From Octopus vulgaris (Eukaryota), in contig OX597823.1 of the NCBI GenBank assembly GCA_951406725.2, forward strand, positions 55,428,001 through 55,492,000: a stretch of DNA of 64,000 bases. Direction: 5' to 3'. Of this stretch, positions 1 through 55,432 are shown one piece after another. Position numbers and translations under genes: made by a program. Below the pieces are notes generated by a model. That model made no database searches. It worked only from the letters and a program-made list of their open reading frames with translations, and was not told the origin of the DNA. Position 1 is the first letter of the stretch, and each line of letters opens with the position of its first letter.

Positions 1-221
1 TGAACAAACCAAACCACAACACACGCTTGCACGTATACACACACCCGTGCGCGCGCACACACACACACACGTGTGTGTGCATAATAAAAATCATATAAAT
101 AAAATTACCAACTAACTAATTATAGATGAGCATGTGTATTTTTTTGTGTGTATGGAACTAAATACTTAAATATTCTAATAACTAAATTTAAAATCTAATT
201 TCATAACCAATAATTATATAC

Positions 222-280
<59 letters not shown>

Positions 281-386
281 GGTATTCATAACGTAAATTA
301 CTGAAAACAGATGTGAACGTTTGAGCCTAAGTATGTGCTTGTGTGTGTATACAAGCGCGCACACTTATATATGTATGTATGTATGC

Positions 387-419
<33 letters not shown>

Positions 420-593
420 TGTATGTATGTATGTATGTATGTATATGTATATATACACGTATGGTTAGACACACACACATGCGTAAGCACTCACGCATAT
501 GCAGATATGTATGCGCAGATATTTTTATACACATGACTGTATATGAACGCAAGTATATATATATATATATATGTCTATGTATGTATATGTATG

Positions 594-658
<65 letters not shown>

Positions 659-659
659 A

Positions 660-741
<82 letters not shown>

Positions 742-991
742 CATTCAAATTTCAACAATAAAGAATGGTGTCTCCAGCCGGGAGACAAGGTTCTTGTCAA
801 TAGAAATTTGGCAACAGTAACAAGGAGAACGACTTCAACTGCAGCTGCTAAAGCAAGACCTATGCCGGAATATGAGAATCTGGCATCGTATTACCGTTTC
901 ATTCGTGTATGCATAGGTGCCTCAGAGTGTCCGTATAAATGCGTTGATATGATTTTTAACATGTATGTATATATGTATTCATGCCTCTATG

Positions 992-1025
<34 letters not shown>

Positions 1026-1383
1026 TGTATGTATGTATGTATGTATGTATGTATGTATGTATGTATGCATGTATGTATGTATGTATGTATGTATGTATGT
1101 ATGTATGTATGTATGTATGTATGCATTTTTGTGTCTATATGTTTGCTTGCATGTATGCATGCATGGACGGATGGATTGCTGGACGGATGTATGTATGTAT
1201 TGATGTGTGTGTGTGTGTGTGCATGTATGTATGCGTGTGTGCATGTATGTATGCATGTATGCATGCGTACTTATGGATGGGTGTTTGGATGTATATGTAA
1301 TTATACGTATGCATCTATGAAAGAATGAATGTGAATTATTATTTCAATTTTCAAAGCAAATATACATACATACGTAATACTAT

Positions 1384-1450
<67 letters not shown>

Positions 1451-1570
1451 ATGTATGTATGTATGTATGTATGCATGTGTATGTATAGATATATAGATAT
1501 ATAAATATGTATGTATTTGTCTATGTATGTATATATACATATATGTATATATATGCGTGTATATACATAC

Positions 1571-1639
<69 letters not shown>

Positions 1640-2224
1640 TATACATATATACTTAATTCATATACTACAATTGATCATGATATCTGGGACAATAAAAATC
1701 TGCAAGGTATTCTTAAAATTTAAAGGAAGGTGAACAAAATAAGATGCTTTCCTGTTTAACCTTGCTACCAAACTGGTGGCTGGTCAAAATTTATTCTAAA
1801 TGAAAAAGAGAACAAGCAAATAAACATATGTACGTACCTATGTACTAGCTTATGTACATGCATTTATATAAATAATCCATGAATATCATAGACGATGTGG
1901 GTTCCAGCCCAACGGGCAATTTTTTCAACCTATTTTTTACATGCTGTTTTCCCTTCCTTTATCTAAGGTGGCAAGCAAATAGAATTGTTAGCAGGCTGGA
2001 CAAAATGCTAAATGGCATCTCTTCCGGTTTTTTACGTTCGGAGTTCAGATTTCGCCGAGATTGACTAAGCCTGTCATCTTTTCGTGGTCGATAAAATAAG
2101 TACGCACGCACACACATACAAACACACACTAAGTTGAAGCACTAAAATTTAGTGCGGTATTATCCGTACAACTTCAAAATAAGATGAATAAAAATCAAAA
2201 TAAGCAACAGGATACCCAGGGGTG

Positions 2225-2312
2225 ATGCAGTACGACCGTTTCAAGCGGTTCCATTTAATTGATCAAGGCAATCATTACATCGATTTAAATGCAGAGCTAT
2301 CCTCAGCTGCAT
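2225..2312 (-). ncRNA. Minimal type I hammerhead ribozyme motif
   Basis: Minus strand: AUGCAG-CUGAGGA-uAGC...GCUu-GAAAC-GGUC-GUA-CUGCAU. Perfect 6-bp stem I, complete core, 1-bp stem III plus tetraloop. The first stem II pair is a U-U mismatch. Confidence 0.75.
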
Positions 2313-3357
2313 AAATAAATAGTATATTTTTAATCAGTCGAACACATTTGTATAATTTTACTTAAATCCTTTAAGGGGGTAAGAAGACAGACAAAGTCTA
2401 TGTTGTTGTCACTTCAGCTTAGAAGTTTCTAAGACATCTGGAAAAAATCTGTTTGGGTCATAGCTTGTCACCGATTTTGGTTCAGTTTTAATTTATTAGT
2501 CTTGTTTATCAAATTTTTGTATATCAAATTTAAAACTAGAGAATAGTGTCTGTTAGGAAAGGGCATGAGAGAGTTGACAGAATCATAATGGATGTAATCA
2601 TAAAACTTGTCAAGATTATTTTGAAGTAGTATAAATTAACTGGCGATAATGATGAGATTGAGTAATGGAAGATCCCAAATCAAGATGTTAATTACCAGTT
2701 AAAGGAGCAAGACGCTAATAGAACCAATGATGATAATACAGAGGAAATATTATCATGGGCTACTATAGGTGATTGATTTTAGCAATATTGTTATATTGTA
2801 TAAAAATAAAATTTAGGGTTATTAAGAAAAATATTATAACCAAAAAGAGAAATTTTGAATAATTTTGAATATATACCAAAATTTTCAACAATAGAGAGAA
2901 AAAATTACATAGAATTAGTTTAATATTCATTCATATACTTAATTATTTACTTATTAGGTGGTATCTATGAAGACTGATCACTGGTATTTACTAAAGGAAT
3001 ACTGTGGTGATAGAACATACTAATTATATATCAATTATAATCTAAGAAGTATATTATAAGTTGTTAAGTTCCCGGTGCTATTATATACAATCTAATATAA
3101 ATTTTTAGGAGTACAAAATTAGGAGGTTTACTTACATAAAGGCTATTATTAAAAAAATATGATCAGAAGTGTGGAACACCATAGAAAGGAATAAATAGTT
3201 TAATCACTAAAAGCCATGATGAAGTTGGACTAACTAGGCAGGAATATTCGTAGGATAGATAGTATACTAATTCTATGTAGCACACTAACTTACTATACTA
3301 TATAGCTTATATTGTATGCAATGTACTTAAATTCTTCATGTAACTGAATATCACCTG

Positions 3358-3417
<60 letters not shown>

Positions 3418-3514
3418 CTAGAGGGTAAGTATAATTAGATACAACACTGAAATTTTAAAAGACAGTTTCCATCAATCCAGTTCAAGCACAACACCTATAA
3501 AACTCTAATTTCGA

Positions 3515-3870
3515 AAATATTTAAATGTACAGGTGACACTATGTACGCATGATACCTTAGTTCTAATCTATTGTTAATCAGGTTGCTCTTGCTCTTATGC
3601 TTAAAAATCTCATATGTTTCCGTAGAGCACAGCTCACACGCGTATCTACTAATTCTATATGGCTGTGCTATCCCTATTATTTCCCATTCAAGGCTAAACT
3701 TGATCCCGCTTCCCTTCAGTTCCTAAATCTTACTAGATAATGACTTACAATTAGCCTTATGTTTAAGTCTAAAAGAGGAAAAAGGATTATAAATAGGGTT
3801 TTTTTTTTTCATATTAATCGAACATTCAATATACATATAGTTACCAGTTATAGTTATGAACATTTTAATA
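3515..3870 (-). mobile_element. Penelope-like retroelement remnant, GIY-YIG endonuclease C-terminus
   Basis: Translation YMYIECSINMKK..SSFRLKHKANCKSLSSKI*ELK..LEWEIIGIAQPY..CELCSTETYEI matches the GIY-YIG end of the element at 9.5-9.9 kb; stops and frameshifts present. Confidence 0.8.
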
Positions 3871-3880
3871 TTTGTAAAAT

Positions 3881-3925
3881 AAACAGTCTGACGAACGAGA
3901 ACGTGAAACTCTGAATAGCTGGTTT
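3881..3925 (+). ncRNA. Minimal type I hammerhead motif in an inverted Penelope terminus
   Basis: CAGU-CUGACGA-ACG agaa CGU-GAAAC-UCUGA-AUA-GCUG. It abuts the minus-strand GIY-YIG remnant in opposite orientation. A sister copy lies at 7578-7621. Confidence 0.7.
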
Positions 3926-4175
3926 TTGCGATATTTTTGTAACGTTTTTGCAGCTTTAATAATAATAAAGCATAATACTCTACCTTCGGTATTCGAGTAC
4001 TATTCTTTTCCACCTTATTTCATATTTAAATGCTTACATTAGCGTGCTAAAATAAGAATTAATTTTATCGTGGGTTGGGGGATTTAACTACTATTTCTAG
4101 GGTGTTGGAAAACCACTCAGTGACTTTTCCCCTCGTGTATTATTTTTATACACATATTTATATATGTATATATAT

Positions 4176-8330: not shown

Positions 8331-10892
8331 GGTAAGAGGAGGAATTTCATACTCACAGATGATGTATTTAACCATTATTAATCCACAATCATTTCATGCT
8401 ATATGATAAGGTAATTTGCCATATTACTGCTCTCCGTGCAAAACTGCTATGTTAAGATTTCTAAAGGCTGAAGGAATTTATTTGTGGGGCAAAGAAAATA
8501 AAATAAAAGAAAAAAGAAAAGAGACAAGGAAAAAAGAAAAAGAAAAAGGAGAAGAAGAAGAAAGAAGGAAAAGAAAAAGAAAAAGAAAAAGAAAAAAGAA
8601 AAAAGAAAGAGAAACGGGGGAGAATGATAGAAAAGAAAAAGAAAAAGAAAAAGAAAAAAAGAAAAAGGAAAAGAAAAAAAGAAAAAAGGGGAAGAGGGAG
8701 AAAAGAAAAGGCGCCTATATAGAGTATACTGCGACAACTTAGCGGGAGGGGGTTCTAAAGTGACCAAATAGAGAAGAATTTGTAGACAACTTAGTTAGCT
8801 TGAATCTTTAAGAATTCAGGAACTATGAGGAGAAAATTTTTGACCAGTAAACAGCTATTTACTATCAACCTGCCACGGATGAAAGCAGATATGAATCTAA
8901 AGAGAATTTAAAGAGATAAACAAGGTCAGGGGTAGAGGGGTCAAAATCTATCGTCAAAAGGAAATACATTAAGAGAAAAAATCTAAGTGCAACCTTAACC
9001 AGAGGTCATTTAAATTATTTATTTATTTATTCATGTTACTGTCTTAAAAATTGTTGCCGTTACTATCAATACATTAACGGACTACCAGTCAAAAGCTAGA
9101 ATTTAATTAACAAGGTGTGATGGAATTGTCTATTTTATTGAAGTTTATCATACTACTTTCAAGGGAGTTTCTTCCCTTAATTAATTTTGTAATAGAATTG
9201 TTAAGCCTTAGTAACTTAATTTATTAAAGTAGTGTTACCTAAACTAGATTAAGTTCTAAAATTAAAGATTTAAAATTAAGATTTAAGAATTAAATAAACT
9301 CTAAAAATTAAGATTTAAGAATTAAGAATTAAATAAACTTTCATTTAAGCAATGTACGAGTACTATTTTATTTCCCAATGCTCAAAATCAGGTGTAGTTA
9401 TAAAGAAAAAGATAACTATAGTGTGAGAACTCGCAGTTATCTACTTAAAAGTAATGTTATACTAGTAAAGACCCGGTTATATTTATCTACCTATCTTGTT
9501 ACGATTATTCTATACAGTTATTCACTTAAAATATTTTAGAGTCTTCAATTTAGCGTGGACACAAACTTGTCCTACTTCAATATGGTTATTTAACAAGTTT
9601 CTATTTTTTCTATGCCTTAGAATTTCATAGGTCTCCATTGAGCAGAGTTGGCAACCAACCCTGCTATTTTTATACGGTATTGCTCTCCTAACTATTTCCC
9701 AATTAAGATTATAATTCTTGTTATTATTTTTGAGTTCCCAGATTTTACTTGAAAGTGTGGTGGTCCCAGCTTTATGACGTAATCTAAAAGATGAGATGTG
9801 ATTTCTAACTCTTTTATTAAAATTTATTGTGCATTCGATGTAAAAAAAATATGTTATTCTCAGTAGATATGGTACATTTATAGATTACGTTATTTTCCCC
9901 GCAAAGACCGGGTGCCGGGCATCTTGACTTAATTCTACACTTACACGCAGGAGGAACAACTTCGGAAGTTGGATTATTCATGGGTAGATGTCTTATGTTC
10001 CTATTATTTTGATTATCATGAGTATAATTATCCTTATTATTATTATTATTTTTATAGTTGGTGCTGTTATCTAAAGCATTGTTATTATTTATTGATCCTA
10101 TTGCTCCATCTTTTAGGTCTAAAGTCCTACCATGATTATTTACATTATTAGTAATGTTACTATTATTGTTAGTATTATTATCAAACTGTATATTGCTGCT
10201 ATAGATATCACTGATATTTTCCTTCTCCGCATTTTCTCTATTAGCCTTACTTCTATTATTAACATTTTTACTTCTATTAGTATCGGTATTATTACTACTC
10301 TTATTACTGCTAATATTATTTTTAGTCGTTTTGTGGTTACTGATTCCATCCGTGTTTTGATAGTTACAATTGTTGTGTTTATTGTTGTTAGTATTGCTAT
10401 AATTGTTATTGGTATTCATGTTGTTATTATTATTTTTATTTTCATCTTTCCTGGCTAGTTTAATGTTGTTATTAATCTTAGCTATTAAAGTGGACATATT
10501 TGGGAGGGTTGAATAAGAAATTCTAACTGTTTTCTTAGAAATAATTCTATGATATCTATGAGAGATTGGGAAATTTTTTCTAGAATTACTTTGAATTTGC
10601 TCCGTATATCCGATTGAATCGCACAGTTGGAAGGAATATTCAGCCATATTATATCTTTTTTATTTTTATTTCTATTAAATTTCCTTGAATTAGAATCAGG
10701 GTTCGTAGAATTATTATTATTATTCATCTTATCAAAGTCATTGTACTTACTTTTATCTGCTGCAATTTTTGCAACTTGTAATAAAGCCTGTCTTTGTATG
10801 AAACAATTGTACTAAAAACTAATCCATTCTTGTTGCTTCTTTCTCGTTTATAATCACCCCACATTACTGTATGGTTAACACCATACAGTAGA

Positions 10893-23431: not shown

Positions 23432-24520
23432 ATTAATTGTTTTATTAGCCACAAGGTCTTACATAAAACAACATTAAAGGACATGACACAACATGAAAGA
23501 CAATACAAGACGAGACAAAGGGTTTTCATCGTGTAAACAATACATATAACGATAAGAAATTAAACAAAATAAAACTAAAATAAATGGAGGCGCTTTAAAG
23601 GTCCTCGTGGAAAAACCCACAAAAGCCACGGGTGCCTAAAAACAGGGCAGAGCCCTTCTTTTATTACTTCACAGTTGTACGCTCAGAATTGGTCCTTTCA
23701 CACTGGCCATTCCTCCAATATTCATTCACCTTTCAACAAACATGCTAGAAGGCAACACTTCTCTTTCCACCCTCAACTTCCTTTACAAGTGAAACTTGAC
23801 AAAGTTGATGATGGCTTGGCCAAAGAGGAAAGTGTCTGACTTTAGCACTCTGAGACGAGTCCACCATACTACCTCTTTCGTTACAGCCACTAGTCAACTG
23901 AAAACTGCCTGCCCCTCCCGGCCATAGGAGGGCGGCGGAATAATCTTCACTATAGATTCAGCCGGATCATATGACAGCAGGTGTTTGACATAAAGCCACA
24001 AGTCAGTAATACTCGGGCACTGGACGAGGGCGTGCAGAACGGTTTCATCGCTCTGGGCGCACCTCGGGTAGGCCCAGCTGACGGCACTTCTGTGCATGAA
24101 AGGTTTATCCCGAACAGGCAGCGCCCCTTGGTAGCACTGCCAGGCAAAGGATTTCTGGAAGTTATCTATTGGCCCAAGCCCGAAAATTCTCCGAAGCAGA
24201 CCGGTCAGTTGATCTTCGTCGACGCCCCGAGTTTTACCGAGAATGTTGTCGCACATTCCCTCCACTAACTCTCTATAGAATGCTAGAGTGAAACTACGAC
24301 CGACCGTATTGCCCTACTGGCGGAGGGCTGTGAGCGCTTGACGACACTCGAGGTGCCAAGCGCCTCTCTTTGGTCTACCCCTAATCCAGGACTGTAACTC
24401 AAAGAGACGAGCTGTGGAAAAGTGAGTCTGACAAACGGCGACCACACCTGCTCACCGTCAGGAAACGCTGGAGATGCCGTAGCCGGAGCGCATGTCTGCA
24501 CATCAGCAACCACAGCATGC
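23432..24520 (-). mobile_element. Tx1/L1-clade LINE 3' remnant
   Basis: FQKSFAWQCYQGALPVRDK..PRCAQSDETVLHALVQCPSITDLW (zinc knuckle); the 3' UTR ends at (TTA)n. Confidence 0.75.
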
Positions 24521-24874
24521 CCAGCCCTCTGTTCAGCGGTTTCAAATTTTGGCATAACGCTGAACTCTCCCGTCGCAGACGACATATGAGCGTTCAGCTT
24601 TTGTAGAACGACCTGCACAAATGGTTTGTTTATAATGATTAAATGCATGTGTTCTACATTAGCTCATTCCCTTCATTAAATCAGCGTTTCTTGAATAGGT
24701 GCATGGTGTACCACGTGTCACGTGTCGAAGTAGTCAGAGAGCAACGCGAGATGAAGTGTTTTGCTCAAGATACACAACGCAGAACCCGGTCTAAGAATTG
24801 AAACCGCAATCTCACGATCGTGAGTGTAACATCCTAATCACTAGACCATGCGTCCTCCGGTAACAATGATAATA

Positions 24875-25638: not shown

Positions 25639-26040
25639 GCGCGCGCGCACACACTCACACATATTGAAAATCTCTACAGGAAAAATTTAAATAAATTCTA
25701 TAAAAGATTTCCAGCCAAAATAATGATCGTTGCCTTCAGCCTTGAGCCAAGTAGAAAAGAAAAACGAATTGTATGAAAGATGCGTCGAGATGAAATGCTT
25801 CAGGCTAAACTGTCTAATTATTATAATTAAATAGAGATGGATAATGATTTGATGGAGCGTGGGTATTGATAGCAGACGCTATGTACAACAAAGAAGGAAA
25901 GAGATAGATAGATAGATAGATCGATACATACATGCATGCATACATACATACATACATACATACATACATACATACATACATTCATACATACGTACGTACG
26001 TACATACATACATACATACAGACAGACATACATACATACA

Positions 26041-26455
26041 TGGGATAAAGAAGAGAAATTGTGTACAATTGTGGAAATCAGCTGCCCAGCTGATGTTAAC
26101 ATAAAGCTAAAGACCAGTGAAAAAGAGAATACCTACGCTGAACTATTGAGAAATCTATGGCTACTCTATCCAAATTACAAGTTCAGGTTTATACCTGTAA
26201 TTATTGGGGCACTAAGATATGTAATGCAGTGCATAAATACCAGTCTTGAGAAATTAGGCTTCTCAAAACCAGAAAGGAGAAAGTTGATTCGAAGATTACA
26301 AACACAATCCATCACTGGAACTGTAAAAATCTGTAAAACTTTCCAGAGGTTTATCATATGAGTACATATGCGCGTGTCTAGATTTGCAAATATATGCAAG
26401 AGAATACATACATAAAACAAAATATACAAATCTACACATATGCATGCATGCGTAC
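26041..26455 (+). mobile_element. R4/Dong-type non-LTR retrotransposon, 3' fragment (RLE domain end)
   Basis: WDKEEKLCTIVEISCPADVNI..EKENTYAELLRNL..FIPVIIGAL; flanked on both sides by (TACA)n. Confidence 0.85.
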
Positions 26456-26526
26456 ATACATACATACATACATACATAAATACATACATACATACATACA
26501 TACATACATACATACATACATACATA

Positions 26527-29500
26527 ACTCGAAGCGATAAGTCGCGTATTTGGCGTGGGAGACAATCGAAAATACAATGAATACTGTTTCCAACTTTGGA
26601 GCCACAACTATCAGCCTTGTTGAATAACTGGTTAATTTTCAGATGAATTAACTGAGGGAGCCTTTTATTCACAAACGTAGTGATTTTCGACTGAAACTTG
26701 AATTTAGCATGCAGAGTTACTACAAACAACATGGCTGGACACAATATCAACAACACAATCGAGGAACAGAACGGAACCAACAGCTCAACAGGTAAACAAA
26801 TTCCTTCTAGCTGTAATTATAGAAGAGACTGTAACTACAAGACTCATTTGTCTTGTTATGAATTAAATAATGATCTGTTTAACCACTACAAAAAAATCGA
26901 ACCAAAACCCCGCCGTTGGCTACATAAATCGATTGAAATCATTTTGGGTCGATCTGCATCCAGAATTAAATCATTTAACTGCGGGGTAACTACGTAAATG
27001 AGCAACATGTGTAGAACATAGGAAGAAGGTTAATTACTCTAACTTTATTTAAAAAATCGAAAATTAACCTTCTTCTCAACTCTATAAACAAAAACGAAAA
27101 CGTCAATGATACAAGACCACCACGTGGTTTCGCAGCTAGCGACATTCCAACAAATTCCATAGTGTCTGCCAGCCATACTACATTACTGGCTCAAGTAACT
27201 GACTACTGTTCCCCTACTACGACTATGGTAAATAGCAGGCACAACCGCAACGATTCTTGTAGTAGTAGTGGTAGTCAGGATTACATGCCGGTGAAGTGTG
27301 CCCTTACTGAAATTTTCCGAGATAAAAATAACTTTGTCTTTGACGTACTCTCTCGAGGAGAGAGTATTCTCTACCAAAGTAAGTAAAAATAACCACCAGA
27401 TATAGTATTAAAAGCTGTTAGCGAAATCGGTGATCAGTAGTTACAACAGCGTGATGAACCCCCATACTGGCAAATCAACGTTTCTCTATATGCTCTGGCT
27501 ACTACTGTAAAACAGTACATGATGATATTCAAAAAGTAAACAAAACCGAAACAACAAAGAAAGTACCATCATGGGTTTTGAAGACAAAGAAAAAAGATAA
27601 CTGGTTTACGGAAAACCATCAGTCATGTAATGATGTTTATTGCATGCAAACAAGCAAATTACTAAACGCCCCACCAACAGAAAGTAAAGAAGGGGTTGGA
27701 AATGATATTTGGAGACAGCGAAAAGAGACACTCACTTGCAAACTGATTACCCTCAAGCAAGAGCTAAAAGCTGTCAGTGAAAAATTCCGACATCAGAAGA
27801 GAATAATCGAGAGAAGAACAATATGCAAAAACTTTAACCGCAACCAGGCAGCAGTATACAGAGACATGAGAGGAAGAGCATTAAACATCGCGGAAGCTCC
27901 TTCATGAGAATACATAAACTCCTTCTGGAGGAAAATCTGGTGTGAAGAGAAGGAATTTAACTAAGATGCTCTGTGGCTGGAAGAAATCCGAAAAAGTTAT
28001 TGCTCCTGCGTTTCATCCAAGACATACAACATTGATGGCGAAGCTCTTGCAACTATAATCCAGAAACTCCAGGATGGAAAAGCACCCGGAAGAGACTTGA
28101 ATGTTGGATATTGGTACAAGAAGCTAACATTCTACCGACCATATCTTATCAATCTGTACCAGCAAGCTTTCAGTGGGAATAATAGCATACCACACTGGCT
28201 TGTTCTGGCAGAGACAAAATTGATCCCCAAATGCAGAACAACCCACATTGTAAAAAAATTTTTTAAATACCGGCCAATTGCATGCCAGAACTTAATGGAT
28301 AAGATATATACAGCATGTTTAAACCTCTTCCTCCAGGACCATTGTGAAACCAATAACATTATCACAGCAGAACAAGCAGCTGGGAATAAGGGAGTTTGGG
28401 GATGTGCCGAGCAATTGTTAATCAACAAAACTGGGATGTGAGTGGTGAAAAAGCATAGGAGGAACCTAGTTTCAATGTCGCTAGATTACAAGAAAACCTT
28501 TGGCTCTGTTCCCCACGCATGGATGCTAGAAGCCCTTCAACTTGCTAAAGTTCCAGTGAGAATAGTCAAAGCCATAGCTGACCTGACTTCATCGTGAGTC
28601 ACCATCTTGAAATTAAACACAAAGAGTGATTGTATTATCACCGATAGAATACAGAATCGTAAAGGCATATTCCAAGGAGACAGTCTCTCTGTGATGTTGT
28701 TTATACTTTCTGTAAACCCTTTGTCATTCATGTTGAGGAAGTGTGATGGCTATCTCACTGGTTCACAAGGAAACAGAAATACCAAAATTACACGTTGTTT
28801 CTTTGTGGATGGCTTAAAACTTTAGGCAAAGAATATGGTCGAGATGAAAAAGAGCCTTGACCTAGTTACATCATTCTCAAAGGATGTAGGATTGGAGTTT
28901 GGTCAGGATAAATGTTGTTATATGGTTGTGAAAAGGAGGAAAATTATAAACCAGACAAGTAACATCTCCATCAATGATTTGACTGTTTCTTTTGTATCTG
29001 GCAAGAAATGTTATAGGTGTCTTAGGGTGGATGAAAATATATCTTACAATAACACTTGTAACAAAATACGTGTCACTACAGAATATTACAGCCGAATACA
29101 GAAAATTTGGACCTCAGAACTCGCTGCATTCAATAAAACAGTGGCTCACAATGTGTTTGCAGTGCCGGTACTCATATCAACATTTGGGCTGCCTGATTGG
29201 ACCCTTCACGAGATCCGAGCTATTGATGTGAAAACCCGAAAAATACTAACAGGCATACATAATTTCCACATAAACAGTGAATGTAGACCTCTTCTACCTA
29301 AAACGGAAACAAAGCAACAGAGGCTTAACATCGATCCAAAATGCCGCATCGCATTGAATGTCGCATCGCATCCCTTCGGAAATATCTTTTAACCACCAAG
29401 TGTCGAAGTGCATCATATGACCAAGTGTGCATACATGAGGCTGATAACATCACAAAACTTGGAAAGCAGCTTCTTGAGCAATACTCTTTGTCTGATAACC

Positions 29501-29960
29501 GAGAATACAAGCCCAAAGAAGTCGCACGACTTTACTGCAACGCACCATCAGATGAAAGGATGAGCGTATACGAGCAGAAGACTATGCATGGATATGTTAG
29601 TAGAAAGCTCCGTGATGATAGCAAAATGGATCATCAAAGCAGTTTATCATGGACCAATAGCCAGATTACTAATTCCCACTTTGAAGGATATGCGTTTGCA
29701 ATCCAGGAAATATGAACCCAGGTGCCTGATGCACAAAAGGAATAGAGATGCAGGAAAACCGGTAAAATGTAACAACCAGTGCAGACTTTGTGGAGTTCAC
29801 ACTGAAGATATCACCCACATCATAAGCAGTTGTCCGAAAATGTCATCACAATATTATCTACCGTTGAGTCGTGATGGTGAATCTAGGACACTATGAAATC
29901 CATCGGAAGGATAACTCCGAGGACAAAGGTATAATAACTCACAATATGGTAGAAGCCAGT
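26527..29960 (+). mobile_element. R4/Dong-type non-LTR retrotransposon, 5'-complete-looking, 3'-truncated, pseudogenised RT
   Basis: GKAPG..YWYKKL, YRPIAC.NL..KIYT, EQ..GNKGVWGCAEQLLINK, DYKK.F.SVPH.W, GIFQGDSLS, FFVDGLKL, GLEFG.DKC and CRLCG..EDITHIISSCP, with multiple stops and frameshifts. It begins directly after (TACA)n. Confidence 0.92.
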
Positions 29961-30049: not shown

Positions 30050-30415
30050 AAGTGTGGTACTTATTCTGCCGGCCCCTATTGCTCTATTGCTTCTAAGTTA
30101 CGGGTATGTTATCAAACCGACACCGGTTATCAAGCAATAGTGGGAAACACAAACACACACACACACACACACGCACACACAGAAGATTCTTTCAGTTTCC
30201 GTTTGCCAAATCCACACCAAAGGCTTTGGTCGGCCCGGAACTATGGTAGAAAACACTTGCCCAAACTGACACGCAGTATGAGTGAACTCGGAACCATGTG
30301 GCTGAAGTGAACCCGGAACCATGTGGCTGGAGTGAACCTGGAACCATGTGGCTGGAGTGAACCCGGAACCATTTGGCTGGGAAGCAAACTCTTTGCCACA
30401 CAGCCATGCCTGTGC
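30050..30415 (-). mobile_element. Family B SINE with a 25-bp tandem amplification in its head
   Basis: ggaaccatgtggctggagtgaaccc repeated about 4 times at 30281-30380. Confidence 0.8.
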
Positions 30416-45070: not shown

Positions 45071-45655
45071 GGCAGGCTGGCAGAATCGTTAGCACGCCGG
45101 GCGAAATGCGTAGCCGTATTTCGTCTGCCGTTACGTTCTGAGTTCAAATTCCGCCGAGGTCGACTTTGCCTTTCACCCTTTCGGGATCGATAAATTAAGT
45201 ACCAATTACGCACTGGGGTCGATGTAATCGACTTAATCCGTTTGCCTGTCCTTGTTTGTCCTCTCTGTGTTTAGCCCCTTGTGGGTAGTAAAGAAATAGG
45301 TATTTCGTCTGCCGCTACGTTCTGAGTTCAAATTCCGCCGAGGTCGACTTTGCCTTTCATACTTTCGGGGTCGATAAAATAAGTACCAGTTACGCACTGG
45401 GGTCGATCTAATCGACTTAATCCGTTTGTCTCTCCTTGTTTGTCCTTTCTGTGTTTAGCCCCTTGTGGGTAGTAAAGAAATAGGTATTTCTTAGTTTTAC
45501 ATTCTATGTAAAGTTTAAATTCCGGCTAGGTCGACTTTGCTTTTCATCCATTTCGGGGCCTATAAAGTAAATACCAGTTGAACACTGGGGTCGATGTAAT
45601 TGATTAGACTCCTCCCCGAAAATTTCAGGCCTTGTTCCTATATTAGAAGGATTAT
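45071..45655 (+). mobile_element. Head-to-tail trimer of family A SINE
   Basis: Units of about 185 bp restart at ggtatttc after aaagaaata (about 45299 and 45483). Confidence 0.88.
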
Positions 45656-49785: not shown

Positions 49786-49846
<61 letters not shown>

Positions 49847-49872
49847 CATACATACATACATACATACATACA

Positions 49873-49899
<27 letters not shown>

Positions 49900-49903
<4 letters not shown>

Positions 49904-50320
49904 GTAACACACTGTCTAAATATCAATCTTCAGAAATTAGGCTTCTCAAAACCAGAAAGAAGAGAGCTAATTCGAAGGCTTCAGATCCAATCCATCACTG
50001 AAACTGTAAAAATCTGTAAAACTTCCAGAAGTCTATCATTTAAAAATATTTGAGCATGTCTAGATATGTGACTCGAGAATACATGCATAAAACAAAACAT
50101 ACAAATCTGCTCATACATGCATACATACATACATACATACATACATACATACATACATACATACATACATACATACATACATACATACATACATACATAC
50201 ATACAAAAATACCCTGCTGTTGATGTTGAAATTCCAATGAAGGAACCTCGGATCTAGGTTAGAAATCGGTTTTTTCTCTATTGGCAAGAAATCTTGAAAT
50301 AAACTGAAAAATGACCTGCA
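49900..50320 (+). mobile_element. 3' fragment and 3' UTR of the TACA-associated R4/Dong-like family
   Basis: KLGFSKPERRELIRRLQIQSITETVKICKT matches 26250-26360; both ends lie in TACA repeats. Confidence 0.85.
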
Positions 50321-50811
50321 TACATGCATACATACGTACATACATACACATGCATGCATACATCCGTGCGTAGTATGGATTGACATTTGCATATGTACAT
50401 GTAATTATTTTTTTCTCTCTTAATAATTTCGGTATTTAAGCCTCTGCCATGCTGGAGCACTGATTTGAAAGCATTTAAAAAGATCTTATCAACCCCGGTA
50501 TTTTTTCTTTCATACATTGTATTTATTTTAACTTCTTCTGTGTGTCAAACCACCAAGATACAGAATATAGGGAGAAATTAAAGTAGTAACTATACTGAGA
50601 AGTAATGTTTGTAGCTACTTCAACATTGCTGTTCTGCACGAACCGACGTTACTACCGTTTTTTAACTACAAGAGGACATCCCATCTAGATGGTAATCGAT
50701 GCAATCTGCACACTATATATATTGCAAGCAAGGGAGCGAACTCCTACAATCTTCTAGCAACTGGACAGGACCATCAGACCGGCTGGTTTTGGGATATATG
50801 TGTATGTGTAA

Positions 50812-51214: not shown

Positions 51215-51440
51215 ATAGTTTACTTATTGAATAAATCCCAGTTTTTTTTTTTCTTTTCGAACTAAATATAACCTATCTCTGTCAGATTTTGGTTCGTGTA
51301 TTCTAAATATCGTTATTAATCTTGTTTTTACGTCTAGTCTCGTTAATATATTTTGCATCCAACTGAGAATATTATAACTGTGATTTATTACTGAAAAAGC
51401 TAGATTATGCAAACACATTATCTTTCCTTTTGCATTAAAA
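51215..51440 (-). mobile_element. R4/Dong-like remnant
   Basis: VINHSYNILSW..LDVKTR..HEPKSDRDRLYLVRK..GFIQ. Confidence 0.7.
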
Positions 51441-51544
51441 ATGTTTTAAATATATTTTTCTAACTGCTTTGAAGACTTTCTTCAGTAGCAGCACCCTATA
51501 AAGCTGCGACTGTATGGCAGTCTTTCTATCATCACCTTGGTAAT

Positions 51545-51750: not shown

Positions 51751-52241
51751 GTTCGGGGTCGATGAAGTAAGTAGCAGTTACGCACTGGGGTCGATGTAAT
51801 CGACTATCCCCATCCGCCAAAATTTTAGGCAGGCCTTATGCTTATAGTAGAAAGGATTATTATTGCAAGGAAAAAGAAATGAGAAATGACAGAAGGTAAG
51901 GAATAATCTAAACCCAGAGTAAATGTACAAACGTTAACATTACGTGAAAGCATGTGGCGTAGAGTTTATGGTGTTGAGCGTACTTGTTGCAAAGTGTCAA
52001 TGGACAATCCTTGCTATATCTCTTATATTCATTTGGGGCTAGTGGCGGGCATTGACTAGTAATATGCCATACTGTTTCACTATTTTGTCCACAAATTCTG
52101 CACTTATCACTTTCTGTGTTGTGTATTTGATGTAATTGGTTCTTAATGCTTGCTCTTGGGCAGCACAGATTAGAACACTCCGTTTTCGGTTTTAAATCAC
52201 TTTCAGTTATCTATAGCCATCTTCTTATTCTTCTTCTTCTT

Positions 52242-52685: not shown

Positions 52686-52688
<3 letters not shown>

Positions 52689-54156
52689 AGTTTTTTATAT
52701 CATACTTTCACTTCACTACCGAGCGCAGCTCTGTGTGCCTTGGGTATGTGCTGTGTTTTGTTGTGATGCTCTGATGGTTACTGTATTGAAAGTGTTTTGC
52801 GTAGGATGTGTGCAGTGCCCAGTAGTGCAATTTTCTGTATGTTATATGTGTTTGTAAGTCCTGGTGTTTTTGTTATGTATTTGTTTGAATATTTTTTATC
52901 ATGCCTAATGCACCTACTATGATAGGAATTGTTTCTGTTTTTAGATTCCACATTCAAGTTATCTCTATTTCCAGGTCTTGTATTTTGAAAGTTTCTCCAT
53001 TTCATTTAGAGACACGTTGTCATCTGCTGGTATTGATACATCAATTAGAAAGCATTTTTTCCTTCATGATCTCTGACAACTATATCTGGTCTGTTGGCCT
53101 TAATTTCTCTATCTGTGTGTATTGGCATATCCCAGAGTATGGTTGCTTTCTCGTTTTCTGTGACCTTTTCTGGGGTGTGCCTATACCATCTTTTTTCTGT
53201 TGCTATTCCATAATGTTGGTATAGCTTCCAGTGTATGAAGGTCCCAACTCTTTCGTGTCTGTGAATATATTCCTTCTTAACCAGGACTGGGCAGCCAGAG
53301 ATAATATGATTTATTGTTTCTTGTCCATTTCCACATATTCTGTAGTTACTTGTTATATTTCTTTTCATTATATGTTTTTGGTAATTTCTGGTGGGGAGGC
53401 TTTGGTCTTGTGCTGCAATTAAAAATCCCTTTGTCTCCGCTTTGAGTCCTGGGCTTCTCAACCGTTGCTGAGATTGTTCTTTGTCTATTTCTTTTGCATT
53501 TAGTTTAGTCCAGTATTTGCTATGAAGAGGCTTTTTCTTGCCATCCTTTTATCATGGTCCGTTGCTGTTCTAGTTTTAGTTTGGATTTCATTTGTTTTAT
53601 AGCTTTTGTTGTTTCTTCATCTTCTTCTTCTTCTTCTTCATCTTCTTCTTCTTCTTCTTTAGGTGGTATGATTTCTTGTTTGTATTTGTCAGCTTCCTTA
53701 AATACTGAGAAAAGTTTTTTGTTTTGCTCGTGTTTTGCCGCTATTTGATCAGTTTTCCTTCCTTCTGAAGTGGTTATTTTTGCAGTCTAATGGTGGTTAT
53801 TTTATAATAGTTTTCCAGCTGCATAAGGCCTCCACCACCTTCTATACGTTGTATATATAGCCTTTCTATGTCAGATTTTGGGTGATGCATCCTAGATCCT
53901 GTCATTATTTTTCTTGTTTTCCAATCTATTTTGGTTAGTTCATTTAATGTCCAGTTAAGGATATTGTAGCTGTAACTTATAACTGGGACAGCTAAAGTGT
54001 TAATACCTATTATCTTGTTTTTAGCATTGAGCTCTGTTTTTATTATTGATCTAATTCGTCTATAATATTCTTTTTATATTTTCTCTTTCATTTGTGTGTG
54101 TTGTGTCTTATCTAATTCATGGATTCCTAAATATTTGTAAGTTTGGCTTTGGTTTA
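52686..54156 (-). mobile_element. 5'-truncated Dong-like (R4 clade) retrotransposon in (TAA)n
   Basis: YKYLGI..HPKSDIERLY..GGGGL..ETKGFLIAAQDQSL.TRNY..RICG..ETINHIISGCP..RH..ILWD.PIHTDREIKANRPDIVV..IQKIALLGTAHILRK. (TAA)n lies at both junctions. Confidence 0.92.
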
Positions 54157-54209
54157 ATTTATTATTATTATTATTATTATTATTAATATTATTATTATTA
54201 TTATTATTA

Positions 54210-54434: not shown

Positions 54435-54904
54435 AAGGGTTGTTATTATTACTTTAATGTTTCCGCGGAGGTCAACTTTGCCTTTCATTCTTTCGGGGTC
54501 GATGAAGTAAGTACCGGTTACGCACTGGGGTCGATGTAATCGACTATCCCCATCCGCCAAAATTTTAGGCAGGCCTTACGCTTATAGTAGAAAGGATTAT
54601 TATTGCAAGGTGAAAGAAATGAGAAATTAACGAAGGAAAGGAATAATCTAAACCCAGAGTAAATGTACAAACGTTAACATTACGTGAAAGCATGTGGCGT
54701 AGAGTTTATGGTGTTGAGCGTACACTCGTTTTACATTGTGGGCTACAGCAAATATTCTGCTCAATACCACAGATTTGCTTGTCAGTTGTTTGACCTTAAC
54801 CAGTTGAGCATGTCCCTTAGTGGCTGACGATATGTGCATCTCTGATCACGAGCAGAAGTAGTGGGGGAGCATCATAGCCATGTGTTGAGAGGAATTTCTT
54901 TGCA

Positions 54905-55432
54905 ACAAGTATGGACTTGACAGAGCAAACAAGTGACACGAACATAAACTCGAAGGCATCATCGAAACTGATAACGTAAAGCTCCTATGGGATTTCATGA
55001 TTCAGTGCGACCATGAGATAGAGAATAGGAAACCAGGCATAGTGTTAATTGAGAAAGAAACAAACTATGCTGGATCATGGATATAGTATGCCCAGCTGAC
55101 AACAAGGTATGCGATGAGGAAGAAAGAAATGTTGATAGATATAACAGGTTAGCTTGGGAGGTTAAGCAGTTGTCGTCGCTGAAAAAGGTTGTATTAATAC
55201 CAATAATTGTCGGAGCCCTGGGAACAGTTAGTAAAAATCTTGAGAATTACATAGAACAAATAGGGGCAGTAATAATGGTAGAGCACTTGCAGAAAACAGC
55301 ACTGCCTGGAACCGCTCGAATACTCCGGATGGTGCTCGAAAAATAAGGGGTATTACCTCAGTTCACTGGTAGTGAACAGCTGACACCGTGGTACATCTAC
55401 AGCGTTAAAAGCAGTGCAAAGACAATATAATA
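54905..55432 (+). mobile_element. Third R4/Dong-like family, 3' fragment with (TAA)n tail
   Basis: KLLWDFMIQCDHEIENRKPGIVL..MDIVCPAD..DRYNRLAWEVK..IPIIVGALGTV..LQKTAL.GTARILR. Confidence 0.88.

Follow-up and report, generated by a model that had tools for sequence, protein, structure and literature searches.

Dong-like retrotransposons with a strand-fixed preference for (TACA)n microsatellites in the Octopus vulgaris genome

Microsatellite-targeting relatives and the copies in the window

The closest described systems are the Dong elements, including Dong of Bombyx mori, DongAg, DongBg and the Dong of Darwinula. As presented in the reports cited here, they share with the lineage described below a single ORF with RT and RLE, an N-terminus devoid of zinc fingers (putatively Myb/SANT-like in the present lineage), insertion into microsatellites and the stacking of copies within one tract (PMC3812793, PMC7998251). 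In R4/Dong elements, a divergent, finger-free Myb/SANT-like domain is proposed to direct targeting (PMC7998251), and an HDV-like self-cleaving ribozyme is described at the 5' end of Dong and R4 in the part of the literature we draw on (PMC3774820). The target differs, being (TAA)n for Dong according to the description cited (PMC3812793), as opposed to (TACA)n or (TACT)n for the present lineage, which also lies on a long branch separate from the TAA-flanked families of this genome, with only about 30-35% protein identity to them, and whose family A carries a TACA run in its 3' UTR. Microsatellites are also targeted by elements of other clades. For example, Waldo of Anopheles and the earwig is described as targeting ACAY microsatellites, ACAT being TACA in another phase, but it belongs to the R1 clade and uses an APE endonuclease, whereas the lineage here has a C-terminal RLE (PMC3812793). 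A target common to the two would be parallel evolution. The (TG)n-specific Togen and some HERO families are, like the lineage, RLE elements found at microsatellites, but their published descriptions set them apart by clade (near NeSL/HERO) and by repeat unit (PMC4640811). Octopus genomes are reported to contain abundant LINE/Dong-R4 families, for which the sections cited give counts and ages but not targets (PMC13282606, PMC8967140); the copies analysed here would probably fall under that label. In the article texts that our literature search covered, Waldo was the only comparable case, and no R4-clade element was described with TACA or another tetranucleotide as its target; TACA- or TACT-targeted R4 families may well be recorded already in repeat databases or supplements.

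The window, by which we mean the whole stretch of 64,000 nucleotides that was analysed, holds three copies of one family, designated family A, together with Dong-like copies of other families that serve for comparison:

25924-26041, plus strand: (TACA)n tract, likely the target, adjoining the 5' end of a truncated copy
26041-26438, plus strand: 5'-truncated family A copy with the C-terminal part of the RLE and the start of the 3' UTR (model 3513-3904, 88%)
26439-26526, plus strand: TACA run (tract 26453-26526) corresponding to the internal tract of the 3' UTR (model 3905-3937)
26527-29958, plus strand: long family A copy with an exact 5' end (model 1-3420, 92%)
26806-27040, plus strand, limits approximate: N-terminal three-helix, putatively Myb/SANT-like segment, frameshifted
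27719-29899, plus strand: RT domain with thumb, and CCHC zinc knuckle (the latter at about 29780-29833), 71% to the model protein (tblastn)
49846-49899, plus strand: (TACA)n tract bordering the third copy on its 5' side, with a gradual transition from a GATA tract
49900-50315, plus strand: third copy, 5'-truncated, with a complete 3' UTR (model 3688-3904 and 3938-4048)
50316-50363, plus strand: degenerate TACA run beyond the true 3' end of the third copy
52686-54158, minus strand: comparison, truncated Dong-like copy of another lineage with TAA tracts at both ends
54898-55426, plus strand: comparison, 3' fragment of yet another Dong-like family with a TAA tract only at its 3' end

The piece at 26041-26438 matches the protein end of the family A model over 54 aa at 87% identity (tblastn), and the fragment-tract layout that includes 26439-26526 is repeated in four further loci (L007, L016, L017 and L047). 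The 5' end of the long copy at 26527 is common to other genomic copies. The ORF of this copy is disrupted by numerous stops and frameshifts, and its final ~630 bases, including the 3' end, are absent; its N-terminal segment matches the N-termini of intact relatives at 50-59%. A Pfam search of fragments from the window returned no RT match. The third copy comprises an internal TACA tract (50112-50205) followed by the terminal 110 bases (50205-50315). An initial annotation of this DNA had placed the families at 52686-54156 and 54905-55432 in TAA, which holds at both ends for the first and at the 3' end only for the second.

Several other sequences were observed in the window. Two more Dong-like protein fragments lie on the minus strand at 51227-51469 and 52022-52219, the second adjoining TTC/TTA tracts. 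The same strand carries a pair of ORFs (9522-10659) whose Cys-rich and GIY-YIG-like words look like the end of a Penelope-like element, and decayed ORFs (23894-24663) in which a CxxC...H...C motif resembles the C-terminal region of L1/Tx1-type elements. Two arrays, one of a 184-base unit (2.6 copies, 45116-45600) and one of a 25-base unit (four copies, 30280-30380), lie within high-copy short repeats.

The genome assembly (2.8 Gb, 227 contigs, dense in simple repeats) was searched with four family A queries, for which a first look gave 378 candidates (5' end), 5,267 (3' piece), 4,598 (middle) and 1,514 (terminal 110 bases); 40 candidates were scored and 30 taken per query. That the long copy and the 3' fragments belong to one family, which had been assumed from pieces that do not overlap in the window, was borne out: in 14 of the 29 other loci found with the 3' piece, sequence matching the last part of the long copy (to 29927-29958) lies ~90 bases upstream of that piece, and the two parts are collinear in the longer genomic copies. 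The resulting majority model spans 4,048 bases with an 871-aa open frame, extended to about 1,150-1,180 aa by comparison with intact homologues, and contains the motifs FVDD, a CCHC knuckle, RH and RPD (RPD..E..K). Its 3' UTR includes a TACA run at model 3905-3937, with the true 3' end ~110 bases further on. Judged by these features, family A is a dead single-ORF non-LTR retrotransposon with RT, CCHC knuckle, RLE and an R4/Dong-type N-terminus.

TACA repeats at the junctions and the choice of insertion site

Junctions were scored for a perfect repeat of at least 10 bases within 30 bases, after removal of five loci that were the window itself and merging of identical junctions. The copies had been picked by internal similarity and not by their flanks, and represent the best-scoring matches of each search, not a random draw. 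In the background, made of 80 evenly spaced 10-kb genome samples (800 kb), TACA was found at 0.79% of random positions. The flank enrichment expected by the initial annotation was found, with TACA far above this background at both 5' and 3' junctions: it was present at 26 of 33 full-length 5' ends of family A, 58 of 114 truncated 5' ends (56/108 once junctions lying behind another copy were removed), 51 of 82 true 3' ends and 17 of 23 3' ends located in the internal tract. The truncated 5' ends are the most telling, because the element itself has no TACA at those positions, and the enrichment there was seen in all five position bins. The opposite strand (TGTA) gave 0/33, 0/114, 1/82 and 0/23 for the same four classes, and 3' ends broken before model position 3880, used as a control, gave TACA in 0 of 39. 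Neither TAA nor TTA occurred at family A junctions (0/33, 0/114 and 0/82 for full 5', truncated 5' and true 3' ends), which sets the family apart from Dong proper with its (TAA)n target, and the commoner TA tracts were not enriched at these junctions. These data support a strong, strand-fixed TACA preference at the 5' and 3' junctions of family A. About half of the truncated 5' junctions are without TACA, some of which are later breaks, and the preference itself may be loose; in the evenly spaced sample, 3 of 6 family A pieces had a clear TACA 5' flank. Within the window, the junctions lie in TACA as first described, with one correction: the sequence to the right of the piece starting at 26041 is the internal run and not the usual end.

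Repeated insertion into one tract, as read from the window, is backed by nested junctions in family A copies. A partial copy ending at the internal tract is followed by TACA and then a full 5' end in five cases, the window included, and by TACA and a truncated copy in three more, giving eight junctions from an internal tract to a new copy. In five other cases, a true end is followed by TACA and then a lone terminal 110-base piece. Insertion of a copy into the UTR tract of an older one should leave two such halves, one of each class, and the long copy of the window was probably inserted into the internal tract of an older copy at 26453-26526. Self-insertion is our inference here, and the same pieces could stem from template jumping or from recombination between tracts. 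One locus (L019) pairs a complete 5' end head to head with 3' sequence in inverted orientation (model 2867-4048); ~ten TACA-like bases separate them, an arrangement that could be a twin-priming product.

Target-site duplications were not detectable, true pairs of flanks scoring no better than shuffled ones in 63 copies, and none of the 67 copies with both flanks had an independent empty site, including in other repeats. Because neither an empty site nor a duplication was found, three explanations for the TACA flanks are compatible with the data. The one we favor, and consider probable, is target-primed reverse transcription into pre-existing TACA tracts at sites chosen by the element's own protein. 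By analogy with R2/R4 biology, the Myb/SANT-like N-terminal domain and the RLE would select the site; the protein would recognise (TACA)n and nick it in one orientation, the nicked TGTA strand would prime on the 3' end of the RNA, a step in which some read-through UACA units probably assist, and copies truncated at the 5' end would keep their junction within the same tract. The succession of fragment, tract and 5' end seen in the window would then arise because the TACA run of the 3' UTR lets later copies land in earlier ones.

Alternatively, a loosely specific endonuclease may nick widely, with only those nicks that pair with a UACA tail of the RNA being able to prime, a reading we regard as unlikely. 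It would accommodate the passage of true 3' ends directly into the repeat, of which the commonest phase is ACATACAT (14/43), the TACA run of the 3' UTR itself, at which 23 of 105 3' ends are located, and the fixed orientation, which pairing would impose as well. The long 5' tracts of truncated copies call for a pre-existing tract, and TACT relatives are altered in both flanks together, but both of these observations are permitted by RNA guidance and protein guidance alike; in R4/Dong elements, a Myb-like domain is proposed to direct targeting (PMC7998251). Lower still in probability, in our estimate, is that the flanks are made by the element, the RT adding TACA by slippage at the 3' end and by a jump onto the tail of another RNA at the 5' end, with no prior tract. 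Such a process would be in line with the lack of detected empty sites and duplications, and head-to-tail pairs, which do occur, could be template jumps; however, only 12 of 147 5' junctions lie behind another copy, several copies have 5' tracts of 100-680 bases, and, by extrapolation, the genome offers ~300,000 TACA tracts, most of which touch no copy. Passive association, i.e. random insertion followed by survival or later tract growth beside copies, would draw on the great richness of this genome in simple repeats but is scarcely credible in view of the strand asymmetry (TACA 26, 58 and 51 against TGTA 0, 0 and 1), the broken ends (TACA 0/39), the commoner TA and TAA tracts, which are not enriched, and the TAA families from the same samples, which sit in TAA.

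Placement of the lineage and relatives in other hosts

A second family of this genome, family B, defined by matches at 45-60% protein identity, has TACA flanks on the same strand as family A, with TACA at 12 of 15 full 5' ends (two being a duplicated pair) and none on the opposite strand. Among 80 loci of a metagenome scan, 11 were close relatives, five of which have intact ORFs of 1,153-1,217 aa. L253 and L254 have (TACA)n at both ends, and L256 has (TACT)n at both ends; L251 and L252 have TACT at the 5' end and no long tract on the 3' side, L257 and L260 have TACT at the 3' end, and no tract was found in the four other close loci, which are partial contigs (L255, L258, L259 and L261). In L257 (3748-3901), the TACT repeats at the 3' end give way gradually to TGAC units and these to GACG. 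The sequence of L254 is present in 20 runs that belong to 9 studies, for the most part metagenomes of sediments, biofilters and biofilms, a distribution that points to a host other than the genome of the window. In one single-organism sample, it shows very deep, nearly uniform coverage, and 5 of 8 distinct 5'-side loose ends among the matches listed are TACA. The association with TACA is real and reproducible, being found in two families here and in other hosts.

The initial annotation saw in these elements a sister lineage that had switched to a tetranucleotide target. At the protein level, the TACA families are 47-54% identical to the TACA/TACT elements of other hosts and only 27-39% identical to the TAA families of this genome, which speaks against such a derivation; by these identities, the split between TACA and TAA elements is old, and not a recent switch from local TAA families. 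Phylogenies agree on the main grouping. The careful tree had 30 rows, 44 of 74 being omitted, and included unnamed relatives and the TAA families of the genome, with an unnamed distant protein as root; quick trees had 72 and 74 rows, ten short or redundant rows being dropped in the latter. In the 30-row tree, TACA and TACT elements form one branch (100/100), nested in a larger one (100/100, stem 0.79) outside which all four TAA rows fall, and families A and B are sisters (99/97); both quick trees likewise recover the TACA plus TACT branch, the TAA rows apart from it and the pairing of A with B. The TACA rows themselves are grouped at 73/96 in the careful tree and split in the quick tree of 74 rows, and a constrained test rejects their grouping (p-AU 8.6e-05), a result in conflict with the best tree and hence not relied on.

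Because the tree rows hold no named Dong, R4 or Rex6 element, R4 membership rests on anatomy, and the anatomy fits the R4/Dong-like assignment made at the outset (FVDD, CCHC, RPD..E..K and an N-terminus without zinc fingers). RVT_1 was found in 23 of 23 proteins (Pfam), and no N-terminal C2H2 finger in the first 1,100 bases of the model, in ten homologues or in five intact ORFs. A profile of the lineage aligned with TAA-type Dong-like proteins over 1,115 columns, N-terminus included, at 28% identity and a probability of 100. The predicted structure of L256 (pLDDT 82.6) has three N-terminal helices (residues 24-77), and the N-terminus gave no direct match to a Myb/SANT profile in Pfam. The best matches of this predicted structure are R2 structures, at 16-18% identity; membership of the R2 clade, whose elements have N-terminal zinc fingers plus Myb and a 28S rDNA target, was ruled out on this low identity, the absent zinc fingers and the microsatellite flanks. 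Waldo, of the R1 clade, with its N-terminal APE endonuclease and a separate ORF1, was ruled out on the single ORF and on the Pfam matches of the 23 proteins, which include no APE family. An Atlas search returned only unnamed RVT_1 clusters. Taken as a whole, the lineage is likely a separate Dong-like branch aimed at four-letter repeats instead of TAA.

The motif GGA(C/T)GTG lies 17-24 bases inside the 5' end of family B (L349-L364), L252, L253, L254 and L256, and is absent in family A and L251. It resembles the downstream promoter element, which lies at +28. Since the motif is only 17-24 bases inside and the initiator would be 28 bases upstream of it, the predicted transcription start would fall within the tract. 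All 4 motif-bearing metagenome elements have an A at the predicted +1, as against only 3 of 14 family B copies, most often with a shift by one base, so that a promoter role is no more than a lead. Non-LTR elements are described as having internal Pol II promoters that include an initiator (PMC2861651). With regard to a 5' ribozyme, Rfam gave no match in 26300-27000, and a crude descriptor found no credible HDV-like fold in the first 300 bases of the old family A model. A widespread, undescribed R4/Dong branch that uses tetranucleotide microsatellites, with a one-base change of target between TACA and TACT, a 3' UTR that in family A provides its own landing site, and a transcription start borrowed from the target, is a tentative picture that we would not expect to hold in full.

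Age, abundance and meaning of the lineage

Family A is old: across 199 segments of selected copies, the median divergence from the model is 7%, and pieces from the random sample are mostly 80-91% identical to it. No intact copy of the TACA lineage was found among the best-scored 152 and 138 genomic matches; among the best candidates scored, the longest open frame at TACA-lineage identity is 505 aa, as compared with up to 1,258 aa in TAA-type matches, and the TAA-flanked families from the same samples are 96-98% alike. In this genome, the TACA lineage looks extinct and the TAA families recent. Many young TAA-type Dong-like copies with frames of 1,200-1,258 aa were also noted in the assembly (G000; for example, C3:6560973, C10:57364703 and C1:157820239), and their long frames suggest that they are possibly still active.

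Six family A pieces in 800 kb extrapolate to ~20,000 in the genome (roughly 8,000-46,000). Of the sampled bases, 2.6% lie in TA tracts, 0.73% in TAA, 0.71% in CA and 0.45% in TACA, and the 85 merged TACA tracts of the 800-kb sample extrapolate to ~300,000 in total. Only 6 of these 85 touch family A or B. The suggestion that the element seeds TACA tracts is correct insofar as a whole 3' UTR adds one internal tract per copy, but as the main source of such tracts, seeding is rejected by this count. The lineage uses TACA tracts far more than it makes them, and its effect on the genome is modest, amounting to ~20,000 old fragments adjoining ~7% of TACA tracts.

With these elements, the targets reported for the clade, mostly rDNA and TAA, come to include a tetranucleotide. 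How retrotransposons of the R2 group change their DNA target bears on their use for gene insertion. The intact proteins of L254 (TACA) and L256 (TACT) are ~42% identical and their repeats differ by one base; together with TAA-type Dong proteins, they make up a minimal natural set in which to ask what selects the site: Myb-like domain, endonuclease or RNA tail.
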